Origin: Candidatus Aenigmatarchaeota archaeon | GTDB lineage: Archaea > Aenigmatarchaeota > Aenigmatarchaeia > GW2011-AR5 > JACRAC01 | Direction of reading: 5' to 3' | Assembly (NCBI GenBank): GCA_016187395.1 | Contig: JACPJV010000014.1 | Location: 891 to 64,890 of the forward strand | Length of the DNA: 64,000 nucleotides | Shown here: positions 15,295 through 56,821 of the stretch, piece after piece | How the letters are laid out: every line of letters begins with the position of its first letter | Numbering within the stretch: position 1 is the stretch's first letter | Notes under the pieces: model-generated | Database searches by the model: none | Told to the model about the DNA's origin: nothing | Seen by the model: the letters and a program-made list of their open reading frames with translations, nothing else | Position numbers and translations under genes: made by a program

Positions 15295-15428
15295 TCTGCT
15301 TTTAAGCAGAGTATAAGATACCATCAAGAGCGAAGCTCTTGATGTACAGCATGAACTTCGTTCATGCTTGTATCGAACTTCTTTGGCATGCCATGCTTCA
15401 AGAAACCACGCATTTTAGTGCGTGGTTC
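15295..15428 (+). repeat. array of short hairpins, including two 26-nt AC..GT units
   Basis: ATCAAGAGC-GAA-GCTCTTGAT (15323-15343), AGCATGAAC-TTC-GTTCATGCT (15348-15368), AACCACGCA-TTTTAG-TGCGTGGTT (15404-15427); convergent gene junction. Confidence 0.65.
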
Positions 15429-27216: not shown

Positions 27217-27342
27217 AAAAAAACCTGATGACAGAAAATGGCAAGAAAACGATAAATAGGCGTGTGATGGTTGCTGTTACAAAAAGGGGCGGTTTTTCAG
27301 GAAATTCTAAATTGATCTGTTACTCCTAATTGCATTCTTATG

Positions 27343-27403
27343 TTAGCAGAAACAAGGCTTCTGCTGCATCGAAGAACTCCTGCCGGAGTTCTTCTTATGT
27401 TAG
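27343..27403 (-). repeat. 61-nt direct repeat copy 1 (two hairpins)
   Basis: 60/61 identical to 27756-27816; immediately 3' of the PRC-barrel gene stop. Confidence 0.85.
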
Positions 27404-27689: not shown

Positions 27690-27755
27690 GCTTAAATAAT
27701 TATGGTGATTTTTTCAACGCCGCAAAGTATTTTTACCCCATCCTGTCTTCTTATT

Positions 27756-27816
27756 TTAGCAGAAGCAAGGCTTCTGCTGCATCGAAGAACTCCTGCCGGA
27801 GTTCTTCTTATGTTAG
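27756..27816 (-). repeat. 61-nt direct repeat copy 2
   Basis: Immediately 3' of the Orc1/Cdc6-like gene stop (27822-27824). Confidence 0.85.
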
Positions 27817-54467: not shown

Positions 54468-55001
54468 ATGAAATTTCAGGCAACAGTTGAGGAAGTCATG
54501 AACACTGACGTGAAAACCGTTGACATGGACGACGACATAAAAAAGGCCGCGGAAATTATGGCAAAGCACAGGGTTGGGTCTGTTCTTGTAATGGGCCAGA
54601 AACACCTGAAAGGCATATTGACCGCGGAAGACATAGTCCATAAGCATGTGGCCAAAGGACTGGGTGAAAAGGTAAGCGACATAATGACGAAAAACCCTTA
54701 CACAATAACACCAGACAAGACGATTGAGGAGGCCTCTGAAATCATGGCAAGAGAGAGGATAAAAAAGCTGCCTGTTTTGAAAGGAGACACAATTGTTGGA
54801 ATAGTAACTGCGTCTGACATCATACGAGTAGAACCGGCATTGTACGAGATTCTTCTTGAACAGTTGCGGATTCACCGTCCTGAGATGCTTAAGGTCAAAG
54901 ATGCTGTTTCTGAAATGGACCAGTGCGAATCCTGCGGCAACTATTCAGACGACCTGAAGGAGGTCGGCGGGATCTGGATGTGCTCAGAATGCAGGGAATG
55001 A
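54468..55001 (+). CDS. CBS-domain pair protein with C-terminal zinc ribbon
   Basis: Two CBS repeats (VMNTDVKTV..., IMTKNPYTITPD...), CESCG...CSEC. Confidence 0.85.
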   Translation: MKFQATVEEVMNTDVKTVDMDDDIKKAAEIMAKHRVGSVLVMGQKHLKGILTAEDIVHKHVAKGLGEKVSDIMTKNPYTITPDKTIEEASEIMARERIKKLPVLKGDTIVGIVTASDIIRVEPALYEILLEQLRIHRPEMLKVKDAVSEMDQCESCGNYSDDLKEVGGIWMCSECRE

Positions 55002-55034
55002 TGAATCTCAACTTTCTTGAATATAGAGAGCGTT

Positions 55035-55082
55035 ATAGTCATGCAAGAAAGAAATTAGCATTATATTTTCTTGCTGATTATA
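55035..55082 (+). repeat. hairpin, paralog of 21149-21198
   Basis: ATAGTCATGCAAGAAA-16 nt-TTTCTTGCTGATTATA. Confidence 0.6.
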
Positions 55083-55185
55083 CAAGCAGAAGCGAAGCTT
55101 CTGCTGTACATGGAAAACTGAAAGTTTTCCAGTACTGATGAACCGAAGGTTCATCATGTACAACAGGAACCCCGTTCCTGTTTGT
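55082..55185 (+). repeat. four tandem 26-nt palindromic hairpin units
   Basis: Units 55082-55107, 55108-55133, 55134-55159, 55160-55185. Each is AC + 8-9-bp stem + triloop (GAA x3, CCC x1) + GT; stems are all different. Confidence 0.8.
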
Positions 55186-55234
55186 ATGTGAACCAAACAG
55201 TATAATATCCTGATTATTTATTTGGTTCACTATG
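55186..55234 (+). repeat. GTGAACCAAA...TTTGGTTCACTAT hairpin
   Basis: 10-bp perfect stem 55188-55197/55221-55230; loop shares ATATCCTGA with 6226-6234. Confidence 0.75.
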
Positions 55235-55236
55235 AT

Positions 55237-55349
55237 TTGCTCCATATACTCCCACGCCTAAAGGCGTGGGTTTCTTTGAGCAAAGCATGTCGGAAGCCTT
55301 CTGTATCATATCCTCCGCTTAAAAGCGGAGGTTTATGTGGAGGCTTCCG
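55237..55349 (+). ncRNA. two-hairpin structured element, copy 2
   Basis: Paralog of 52858-52973 with compensatory changes in both stems of the second hairpin. Confidence 0.5.
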
Positions 55350-55633
55350 CCTATAATTGGAACCCTTTGTTTTCGTTTTATGCGGGTTTTAAGCCAAAAC
55401 AAAGAGTTTAAATAGTTTCCGAATATCTATCCGTAAGGATATTACCAACAACGCGAGAGAAGAGCTGGTGTATTATCATGTTCACAATCCAGTGCCGGAC
55501 TGAACCGGCACTATTCACGGAATTTGAAAATGAATAAGGTATAGCATTAGCTCTGTTTCTTGCCTGAATATCCGACAAAAGGTGTGTGAGATGAATGCAC
55601 GTTTTCCTTCAGGAAAACGTGAGGTGTGTTCAA

Positions 55634-56821
55634 ATGGGAAAACTGGCACAGAATTTCGCCAAGTATATGATACATGCGAAAATGGAGGCTACGGGCACTG
55701 TAGAAAAGCCTGATGTTATCGGGGCTATTTTCGGGCAAACCGAGGGGCTTTTAGGACAGGACTTGGACTTGAGGGAACTGCAGAGGACCGGCAGAATTGG
55801 AAGGATAGAGGTAAGGCTGAAAACTCTCAAGGGCAACACAACTGCTGAAATTGAAATTCCGTCTTCATTGGATTCAAGCGAAACTGCGCTTATAGCAGCT
55901 GCGCTGGAAACAATAGAAAAGGTTGGCCCGTGCACTGCAAAGACCGCCATAGAGAAGGTTGAAGACGTGCGTACGCAAAAGAGGCACTTTGTTATAGACA
56001 GGGCCAAGGATATTCTGCGCGATATGACTTCAGAGCTTAGCGAAAGCCAGAACATCGCAGAACATATCAGAGAATCTGTAAGGAGCTTTGAAATAAGCTC
56101 CTGGGAAGGACTTTCTTCCGGCCCGGATGTTCTGACATCAGATGAAATAATCATAGTAGAGGGCAGGGGAGACGTCATAAACCTGGTCAAAAATGGAATA
56201 AGAAACTGCATAGCGATAGAGGGCAGCAAGGTGCCTGAGCCTATAGAAAGATTGTGCAAAGAAAAGGTCGTTACGGCATTATTGGACGGGGACCGGGGCG
56301 GCGATCTTATACTAAGAAAGCTTCTGTCCACTGTAGAAATAGACTTTGTTGCGAGGGCAGAGGAGGGCAAGGAAGTGGAAGAGCTAACAAAAAAACAACT
56401 GTTCAAATCACTGAGATCAAAGGTCACCGTGAACAGAGTGATCGAGGATATTGGTAAGATTGCTCCTTCGACTATAAAGGATTTTGAAGAGCAGGAAGTG
56501 GAAAAGGAACACCTAACAGCAGAAAAGCGCAAACAGCTGCTGAAGCACGTGGAAGATCTGGTAGGAACCCGAGCGGCATTCCTCCTGGACAGCGATGGGC
56601 ATTTGCTTTCAAAGATGCCGATAGGTGAATTGAGCCTGCTTATACAGGATTATCCAGAGACTGACATTGTTGTCATTGACAGCAAGATAAACCAGGATCT
56701 CGTGGACCTTGCCATACAGAGAAGGATAAAATATCTAATAGGCACCGGCATGAAAGATGAAGTCAAGTCTCCGAAAACACTAATTGTCATAACTCCCGAA
56801 GAACTGAAAAGCATGGCCTAA
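55634..56821 (+). CDS. dnaG: archaeal DnaG-type primase (TOPRIM)
   Basis: KYMIHAKMEATGTVEKPDVIGAIFGQTEGLLG N-terminus, TOPRIM IIVEGRGD and LLDGDRGGDLI; start at M14. Confidence 0.9.
   Translation: MGKLAQNFAKYMIHAKMEATGTVEKPDVIGAIFGQTEGLLGQDLDLRELQRTGRIGRIEVRLKTLKGNTTAEIEIPSSLDSSETALIAAALETIEKVGPCTAKTAIEKVEDVRTQKRHFVIDRAKDILRDMTSELSESQNIAEHIRESVRSFEISSWEGLSSGPDVLTSDEIIIVEGRGDVINLVKNGIRNCIAIEGSKVPEPIERLCKEKVVTALLDGDRGGDLILRKLLSTVEIDFVARAEEGKEVEELTKKQLFKSLRSKVTVNRVIEDIGKIAPSTIKDFEEQEVEKEHLTAEKRKQLLKHVEDLVGTRAAFLLDSDGHLLSKMPIGELSLLIQDYPETDIVVIDSKINQDLVDLAIQRRIKYLIGTGMKDEVKSPKTLIVITPEELKSMA

Follow-up and report, generated by a model that had tools for sequence, protein, structure and literature searches.

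Two kinds of described repeat come closest to the DNA that we discuss here. Repetitive extragenic palindromic (REP) elements are extragenic palindromes of 20–40 nt whose stems show complementary changes, and they occur mostly as inverted dimers, including heterodimers, with the two members only 1–5 bp apart in some families (PMC3733652). They also cluster and insert inside longer ‘target’ palindromes (Di Nocera et al. 2013, PMC3733652); the main text of that paper names no archaeal REP family, and ‘archaea’ occurs only in its reference list. The second kind comprises MITEs (miniature inverted-repeat transposable elements) of the IS630/Tc1 type, such as the Correia/CREE elements of Neisseria, the RUP elements of Streptococcus pneumoniae and the Stowaway-type elements of eukaryotes. 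In addition, the small dispersed repeats (SDRs) of heterocyst-forming cyanobacteria, which Elhai and colleagues described in 2008, reportedly measure about 21–27 nt, have been inferred to be mobile, form hairpins in some cases and are often nested in each other or in carrier repeats. Here we analyse an array of four hairpins in a 64,000-nt stretch of DNA (the window, positions 891–64890 of contig C3) from a metagenome-assembled genome (MAG) of a Candidatus Aenigmatarchaeota archaeon. The assembly, G000 below, comprises 982 kb on 42 contigs and is 80% complete. The relatives of the DnaG protein encoded next to the array all come from Candidatus Aenigmatarchaeota MAGs, and in the searchable literature we have come across no account of repeats like these from Aenigmarchaeota or from any other DPANN archaeon.

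We believe it likely that this array, which lies in the gap between a CBS-domain gene and dnaG, is a nested pair of non-autonomous palindromic mini-transposons, of a kind that stands between a MITE and a REPIN (a REP doublet forming a hairpin). The mobile unit would be a 50-nt doublet of hairpins that inserts at TA and duplicates it. According to this proposal, an outer doublet (stems AGCAGAAGC and AACAGGAAC) would first have landed on the TA joining two ~50-nt hairpin repeats downstream of the CBS gene, and a second doublet (stems TGGAAAACT and TGATGAACC) would then have landed on the only internal TA of the first, at the centre of its GTAC. Two such insertions would leave two forward units followed by two reverse units, GTAC at each junction and an exact period of 26 nt (24 nt plus a shared TA). 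Effects on the expression of the CBS gene or dnaG, if any, would probably be secondary.

The array reads ACAAGCAGAAGC-GAA-GCTTCTGCTGT and ACATGGAAAACT-GAA-AGTTTTCCAGT in units 1 and 2, and ACTGATGAACC-GAA-GGTTCATCATGT and ACAACAGGAAC-CCC-GTTCCTGTTTGT in units 3 and 4. Every unit has a perfect 9-bp stem, a triloop (GAA, GAA, GAA and CCC, in that order) and a foot of 2 bp (AC/GT) that is set off by one bulged base, A or T, and GTAC stands at all internal junctions. A preliminary description of this DNA had reported four 26-nt units with perfect stems, triloops and GTAC junctions, and this much is confirmed, as is its point, judged here from the layout of the units, that the pattern is not that of a CRISPR array: the variable parts are self-complementary stems, and the constant parts are only junctions of 4–5 nt. 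It had also called the stems unrelated and their order head-to-tail, and neither statement survives. The stems are variants of one family (consensus AGNAGGANC), and the two inner ones reappear unchanged in five other copies. Furthermore, the bulge is 5' in units 1 and 2 and 3' in units 3 and 4, and thus the order is forward, forward, reverse, reverse around the GTAC at 55132–55135.

Chance is excluded as the source of this structure, since a 112-nt stretch with the array, folded as single-stranded DNA, reaches -35.2 kcal/mol on the plus strand and -35.1 on the minus strand when shuffles give -9.3 +/- 2.4 (z about -10.9 and -10.6, respectively). The copy in the window is slightly aberrant, in that its unit 3 is the sole reverse unit with a GAA loop and a CCC loop is found only in its unit 4. 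At the position of this unit 3 loop (55148–55150), which is GAA although the unit is reverse, three of the four other listed copies have TTC or TTT and the fourth, on contig C24, has TAT. A GAA loop is what one would expect had the two arms recombined, or had template switching occurred between them, so that the loop was flipped.

The hairpin units belong to a dispersed family with copies on many contigs. A genome scan for perfect hairpins of at least 8 bp yielded 475, of which 219 have triloops, 88 of these being GAA or TTC. Family units with ACA...GT or AC...TGT flanks number 51 in the forward and 52 in the reverse orientation, with GAA as the loop in 26 of the former and TTC in 22 of the latter. 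These units are arranged as forward-reverse doublets 28 times and as forward-forward-reverse-reverse four-hairpin copies five times, and the orders reverse-forward and reverse-reverse never occur. Thus, other arrays exist in the genome, a result that goes in favour of the preliminary description. A doublet has the layout TA/CA-stem-GAA-stem-G-TA-C-stem-TTC-stem-TG/TA and is 50 nt long, a four-hairpin copy is 102 nt long, and imperfect terminal inverted repeats (TIRs) of about 11 nt, CAAGNNNGANC, are present at both outer ends of the doublet. A second copy in the window, which had rightly been noted for its similar design, is a variant doublet that belongs to this family and reads ACC instead of ACA.

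The inner doublet of our array, whose ends are CATGG... and CATGA..., is found solely in nested form, within five different outer doublets; its stem pair TGGAAAACT/TGATGAACC recurs at C13:26544, C31:39236, C35:2451 and C24:5257. Stem AGCAGAAGC of the outer doublet is present in 10 units genome-wide. All convincing copies are intergenic, with both flanking genes pointing right in 12 cases, convergent in 7, divergent in 4 and both pointing left in 3. A crude caller of open reading frames (ORFs) places some copies inside ORFs of 70–150 aa, which are artefacts of the palindromes. Copies of one subfamily are nearly identical and have subfamily-specific loops, so that the small number of mismatches fits young copies of about 10–20 diverging master sequences.

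The evidence for insertion comes from a flank-pair test, in which the 12 nt on each side of every doublet were taken and the same pair was sought throughout the genome. Of the matches, 119 have only 2 nt between the flanks (TA in 104 of them), 32 have 54 nt and one has 106 nt, and a gap of 28 nt, which would correspond to a single unit, is never seen genome-wide. Among the flank pairs run, no genomic site has the flanks joined by nothing or by TATA, TACA or TGTA. Sites with a bare TA and sites with TA, 50 nt and TA between matching flanks are the signature of a 2-bp target duplication. The array itself has such a counterpart: the host site ...TTTCTTGCTGATTA-TA-TGTGAACCAAA... has a near-identical twin at about C31:34630–34740 that lacks the 102-nt insert, and there the paralog of the left host hairpin abuts the right-hand host hairpin with only TA between them. 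Nesting is documented separately by a doublet at C22:5133 and a four-hairpin copy at C35:2423, which share flanks and outer stems and differ solely by the inner 52 nt. This pair indicates that, in the four-hairpin array, one doublet has inserted into the central TA of a second one.

The target does not have to be TA. When 35 doublets were parsed blind to the dinucleotides, the left, central and right dinucleotides proved to be TA, TA and TA in 30, CA, TG, CA or TG, CA, TG in four, and TG, TA, TA in one. Therefore, the two flanking dinucleotides are identical in 34 of 35 doublets, including the four at non-TA targets, and in all four of the latter (TG or CA) the central dinucleotide of the element bears the complementary change. 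The empty counterpart of one TG-target copy is GGCA-TG-CC at C35:16699. At C24:5229–5334, C14:14321, C5:3536 and C4:30077 all junction dinucleotides alternate between TG and CA instead of being TA, with the identity of the flanks and the Watson-Crick pairs of the foot retained. The duplicated base of the target and a base within the element thus covary.

A further doublet family, CCTTCAAAGAAC-TTT-GTTCTTTGAGG followed by TCGAAGAACC-ATA-GGTTCTTCGA, uses the same TA sites as the ACA/GTAC doublets. Its members lie at C13:39–86, C13:36757–36814 and C14:14512–14557, and they appear in the flank-pair test as a gap of 56 nt.

The family is restricted to one archaeal order, several genera of which have related doublets. 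The pattern ACA-N21-GTAC-N21-TGT has 26 matches in this genome and none for a reversed control; it also finds many true doublets in two genomes of the same family, G002 and G005, and 0–2 matches in most genomes. Doublets are abundant as well in G014, G036, G046, G047, G058 and G060, which belong to another family of the order. A stricter pattern matches in five of 301 genomes, all of this order, and the roughly 245 genomes that represent other orders in the class have no match. In the relatives, the doublets share this geometry and their stems are other purine-rich sequences (AGGTGAAGC, AGGAGAATC, AGGTTAAGC); they too are flanked by T...A and placed between the same kinds of hairpin. The exact doublet arms have no match in 2.9 million viral contigs.

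Given this distribution, it is appropriate to ask whether the doublets serve their host as domesticated DNA structures, like the bacterial interspersed mosaic elements (BIMEs). They might be bound by a nucleoid protein, a topoisomerase or an enzyme of the Holliday-junction type, or might organise the chromosome as cruciforms, with a mobility that is ancient and now inactive. The family does persist across an order whose DnaG proteins are only 55–59% identical, several carrier genomes lack a detectable transposase, the architecture has two-fold symmetry, and the C-GAA-G loop closure is a motif of very stable DNA mini-hairpins. However, the occurrence is patchy, since most genomes of the order, and some within the same family, have only 0–2 copies; near-identical copies within a subfamily speak for recent spread, no position is conserved at dnaG, and the protein that would bind the doublets is hypothetical. 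Such a role would be compatible with a mobile origin and competes only with the view that the doublets have no host function; we give it little chance of being correct.

The manner in which the stems vary bears on whether DNA or RNA is the relevant molecule. Across 79 units of 9-3-9 geometry, which represent 20 stem types, 709 of the 711 pairs in the stems follow Watson-Crick rules and G-T pairs are absent, a count that is biased because the units had been picked as hairpins. At sites chosen by their flanks alone, 461 of 468 stem positions are paired. Eight of the nine stem positions vary across the 20 stem types. Among 37 distinct sequences, 99.5% of the cells are paired, 92 cells are changed on both sides (as opposed to 25 in shuffles), and covariation is scored at 0.619 (as opposed to 0.153 in shuffles). 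Wobble pairs are missing, the two strands have the same form, and they fold with equal energies; together these features point to palindromy at the level of DNA rather than to a selected RNA. We infer that the property preserved is the formation of a hairpin in DNA, either single-stranded or as a cruciform. Full compensation would then arise if only foldable copies are mobilised, or if template switching at palindromes copies one arm onto the other.

An RNA element selected by the host, carried by the CBS mRNA or by a precursor of its own and serving in 3'-end protection, as processing sites or as small hairpin RNAs, must nevertheless be considered, not least because the preliminary description had offered a polycistronic precursor of small hairpin RNAs. 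The array follows the CBS stop codon by 80 nt, upstream of a terminator-like hairpin and T run at 55251–55277, and so is probably in a 3' untranslated region; its folding is far above that of shuffles, its stems covary, and bacterial REPs stabilise upstream mRNA. However, the mismatches among the 711 stem pairs are not wobble pairs, the copies also occupy divergent and convergent gaps, with the inner doublet in both orientations relative to the upstream gene, and the units themselves lack a T run. Nor does the array region match any Rfam 15 family at the gathering threshold; a permissive scan of 54900–55700 returned only a chance Phe_leader match outside the array (21.5 bits, where the cut-off is 55; E = 0.57). 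In addition, the presence of the element at some sites and its absence at others, together with the duplication of TA, mark a DNA insertion.

The comparison with relatives, which the preliminary description had put forward as a check, is instructive in the same respect. At none of 19 dnaG loci of relatives, one of which encodes a protein with 78% identity, is there a dense run of hairpins upstream of the gene; in four, one unrelated 8-bp hairpin lies within 1.2 kb, and in the other 15 there is none. The synteny of the CBS gene and dnaG is lost even in the closest metagenome relative (locus L029, 78% DnaG identity). Therefore, the array is indeed absent from close relatives at this position, and this absence argues for mobility rather than for a conserved RNA. 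Altogether, we regard a selected RNA as very unlikely, and the idea of a small-RNA precursor is not supported.

It is scarcely credible that the four-unit array is a product of assembly, with paths joined through repeated hairpin k-mers. A Logan assembly made independently for the same population (SRR12113424; contigs L068 and L069) does break at the first GTA, immediately past unit 1 (...GCTTCTGCTGTA), to continue from about 55327, so that the assembly graph is ambiguous there, and the C35 copy, once reverse-complemented, is identical over units 1 and 2 and the first arm of unit 3. However, four-hairpin copies of this design whose outer stems and flanks differ lie on five other contigs, the GAA loop of unit 3 and the CCC loop of unit 4 are unique and provide unique k-mers that tie these units to the right flank, and the Logan contig agrees at every base with the left flank and unit 1. 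The two Logan contigs end inside the array and restart inside the next hairpin element, an example of how these repeats fragment short-read assemblies.

Two further ideas were set aside. A reading of the ACA between hairpins as an H/ACA-like motif was rejected by reasoning only, because the units are perfect 21-nt hairpins without a pseudouridylation pocket or K-turn. GTAC as the target of a restriction-modification system finds no support in its genome-wide frequency, with an observed/expected ratio of 0.83 as compared with 0.51–0.59 for CTAG, GGCC and GATC.

If the doublets are non-autonomous, as we propose, they would be moved by an enzyme acting in trans. The candidates are a DDE transposase of the IS630/Tc1 type and a hairpin-reading Y1/HUH enzyme, similar to the REP-associated tyrosine transposases (RAYTs). 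The duplication of TA and the CA...TG ends favour the former, and the latter is favoured by the strict need for a hairpin, by the conservation of the bulge and by the design as inverted dimers; we prefer the IS630/Tc1 type only slightly. Transposase profiles (PF13358, PF01797, PF01609 and PF07282) were searched in this genome and in its relatives. IS630-like DDE_3 transposases are present in the sister genomes G002, G005 and G058, and the TIR of the G005 element, TATAGCTAACCCA, is unlike the doublet ends and resembles the ~50-nt TATAGTGAACC/TATAGCAAACC hairpins instead. Full-length Y1 genes occur in six of ten doublet-rich genomes and in one of ten doublet-poor genomes, two of the latter (G007 and G009) having fragmentary matches only, and PF01797 (Y1_Tnp) was not found in G000, G014 or G036.

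Unfortunately, several of the results weigh against the interpretation as mini-transposons. DDE_3/IS630, Y1_Tnp, DDE_Tnp_1 and TnpB all went undetected in this genome, which is weak evidence because the MAG is only 80% complete. G014, which is 97% complete and has 13 doublets, also lacks all four transposase families, and G036 lacks three of the four and has two DDE_Tnp_1 genes. A search for inverted repeats around the transposase genes of relatives revealed no insertion sequence with doublet-like ends, and the Y1 genes of G001, G005, G046, G047, G058 and G060 are flanked by CCGCAGGC-type hairpins, not by these doublets. Neither candidate enzyme fits in full: a DDE enzyme that reads double-stranded ends would not need strict palindromy of the ends, and HUH enzymes do not make the 2-bp duplication seen here. 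Finally, every comparison of empty and filled sites is between paralogous copies of repeats and none is between orthologous loci. Larger composites may have carried some of the filled sites along as they spread, and some were clearly copied in this way (for example, C29:36389 and C31:7517).

One further possibility, which we consider doubtful, is that the doublets are moved by an enzyme that reads the shape of the DNA rather than its sequence, recognising the foot of the folded hairpin plus a dinucleotide. The duplicated target base would then form the outermost pair of the foot with a base inside the element, and the enzyme could be either an unrecognised archaeal protein or a host enzyme that processes junctions or hairpins. 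If true, it would mean that 50-nt palindromic DNA is transposed in a new way, one that combines REP-like recognition of hairpins with a 2-bp duplication, and it would account both for the self-nesting at the centre of the element and for the persistence of the family in genomes without known transposases.

Table 1. Coordinates in the window of the array, its parts and its surroundings, with parts named according to the proposed nested insertion.
Feature	Position	Strand	Sequence or remark
Four-hairpin array	55082–55185		four abutting 26-nt units: 55082–55107, 55108–55133, 55134–55159, 55160–55185
Inserted element proper	55083–55184		102 nt, CA...TG; outer doublet with inner doublet nested centrally
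Left copy of duplicated target TA	55081–55082		same-flank sites elsewhere have a single TA
Unit 1 (forward), left half of outer doublet	55082–55107	+	ACA-AGCAGAAGC-GAA-GCTTCTGCT-GT
TA in central GTAC of outer doublet	55107–55108		left duplication copy from inner insertion
Inner doublet	55109–55158		50 nt, CA...TG; unit 2 stem TGGAAAACT and unit 3 stem TGATGAACC, both GAA-looped
Right copy of TA duplicated by inner insertion	55159–55160		
Unit 4 (reverse), right half of outer doublet	55160–55185	-	AC-AACAGGAAC-CCC-GTTCCTGTT-TGT
Right copy of duplicated target TA	55185–55186		
Second family copy in window, doublet	15320–15371		(T)ACC-ATCAAGAGC-GAA-GCTCTTGAT-GTAC-AGCATGAAC-TTC-GTTCATGCT-TGT(A)
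CBS-domain gene, upstream	54468–55001	+	array starts 80 nt past stop codon
Left host hairpin repeat	55034–55082		TATAGTCATGCAAGAAAG...CTTTCTTGCTGATTATA; ~50-nt TATAGTG/CACTATA hairpin family
Right host hairpin repeat	55185–55233		TATGTGAACCAAA...TTTGGTTCACTAT; ~50-nt family of left host repeat
Separate repeat of two nested hairpins	55237–55349	+	G+C-rich inner hairpins plus T run, 55251–55270 and 55312–55331, terminator-like
10-bp hairpin of another dispersed family	55598–55621	+	GAATG-CACGTTTTCC-nnnn-GGAAAACGTG-AGGTG; ends in Shine-Dalgarno-like GAGGTG before dnaG start at 55634
Archaeal DnaG (Toprim) gene, downstream	55634–56821	+	

The array is only one component of a gap that is rich in repeats (Table 1). 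The preliminary description had presented the space between the CBS gene and dnaG as saturated with hairpins and very unusual. The first part holds, given that the 632-nt gap contains more than 11 helices and that its folding as RNA gives z = -19.3 on the plus strand and -12.9 on the minus strand, but the gap is not unique, because at least three other regions of the genome are as densely packed. The ~50-nt host hairpins on either side of the array end in TATAGTSANC or TATAGCAAACC and resemble the TIR TTTATAGCTAACCCA of a 355-aa IS630-like (DDE_3) element in G005 (L017:683–1814). These ~50-nt repeats may be ends-only MITEs of an insertion sequence of the G005 type. Next to dnaG, the hairpin CACGTTTTCC-TTCA-GGAAAACGTG followed by AGGTG (55598–55633) is one of dozens of GAATG...AGGTG/CATTC copies, which often abut start codons. 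Yet another dispersed hairpin, AACCGCAGGC-TTTA-GCCTGCGGTT in a TGCTTC...GAAGCA outer stem, is present at C4:17939, C15:10003, C35:24138 and other sites; nearly the same stem lies beside Y1 (IS200/RAYT-type) genes in G001, G046 and G047 (L023:1398–1417, L026:839–858 and L027:1436–1455).

Two loci elsewhere in the window had been linked to the array in the preliminary description, and in both cases the link is partial. Stem AGCAGAAGC of unit 1 does recur at 27345–27365 and 27758–27778, although with other flanks and as part of a different 50-nt repeat. That repeat, present at 27342–27400 and 27755–27813 as two direct copies that lie 413 nt apart and bracket a short segment, consists of two hairpins, AGCAGAAGC-aag-GCTTCTGCT and then GAAGAACTCC-tgcc-GGAGTTCTTC; it is 50–60 nt long and has one stem in common with the array. 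The second locus is a tRNA-Arg(TCT) gene, from 2463 to about 2571, with a ~35-nt intron in the T-arm region that holds a GAAGCCC-GAA-GGGCTTC hairpin. This hairpin is GAA-capped, as had been stated, but it is not a member of the family. Rfam aligns only 2463–2527 of the gene, and ARAGORN misses it, reporting no tRNAs in the window under default settings and only noise under relaxed settings.

Given that the doublets appear to be selfish repeats of an ordinary kind and not a new cellular system, it is fair to question what is gained from their analysis. We believe that the interest lies mainly in the enzyme that mobilises them and in the evolution of stems that change in sequence while their structure is preserved. 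The family persists across an archaeal order in genomes without a detectable transposase. In addition, the hairpin-saturated gaps of this and related DPANN genomes would be better understood as layers of tiny palindromic mobile DNA than as RNA genes. Such gaps produce spurious ORFs and break assemblies, and thus they affect how gene boundaries are read in reduced genomes.

How, then, do the doublets compare with the systems introduced at the outset? With the IS630/Tc1-type MITEs they share non-coding, dispersed and intergenic copies, terminal inverted repeats tipped by CA...TG, insertion at TA with its duplication, and insertion into other repeats. However, those MITEs are roughly 100–160 nt long and the doublets only 50 nt, each end of a doublet is a perfect hairpin that drifts in sequence with full compensation, no autonomous partner with matching ends has been found, four doublet copies duplicated TG or CA, and the host is an archaeon. 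The SDRs of heterocyst-forming cyanobacteria belong to a different lineage and have different sequences. Archaeal bulge-helix-bulge mini-introns are hairpin inserts of similar size (about 26–35 nt), some of them GAA-capped, such as the tRNA-Arg intron. They have two 3-nt bulges on opposite strands with a 4-bp helix between them and interrupt a functional RNA or a coding sequence, whereas only one nucleotide bulges from each array unit, two base pairs from its foot, and the units are intergenic, strand-symmetric and flanked by a duplicated dinucleotide, and an assignment to this class was therefore rejected.

The REP/BIME/REPIN-RAYT systems (PMC3116915, PMC3733652) have compensated palindromes, inverted heterodimers, clustering and insertion into longer palindromes in common with the doublets. 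A REP/BIME-like array, one of three explanations that the preliminary description had listed, comes closest of the three, in that these are dispersed, clustering and nested extragenic palindromes. The resemblance ends at the tag and the enzyme. The GTAG or CGTC tag of REPs and REPINs is not found in the doublets, whose units begin with (T)ACA and end with GT(AC); no RAYT, in those systems a single-copy gene that usually has the repeats at its sides, was found in this genome, and the Y1 genes of relatives are not flanked by doublet units. Moreover, unlike REPs and REPINs, the doublets have a 2-bp duplication of their flanks, and their two halves do not pair into one long hairpin. The family therefore bridges two classes, with heterodimeric and compensated hairpins in the manner of REPs and with a 2-bp duplication and CA...TG ends in the manner of MITEs.

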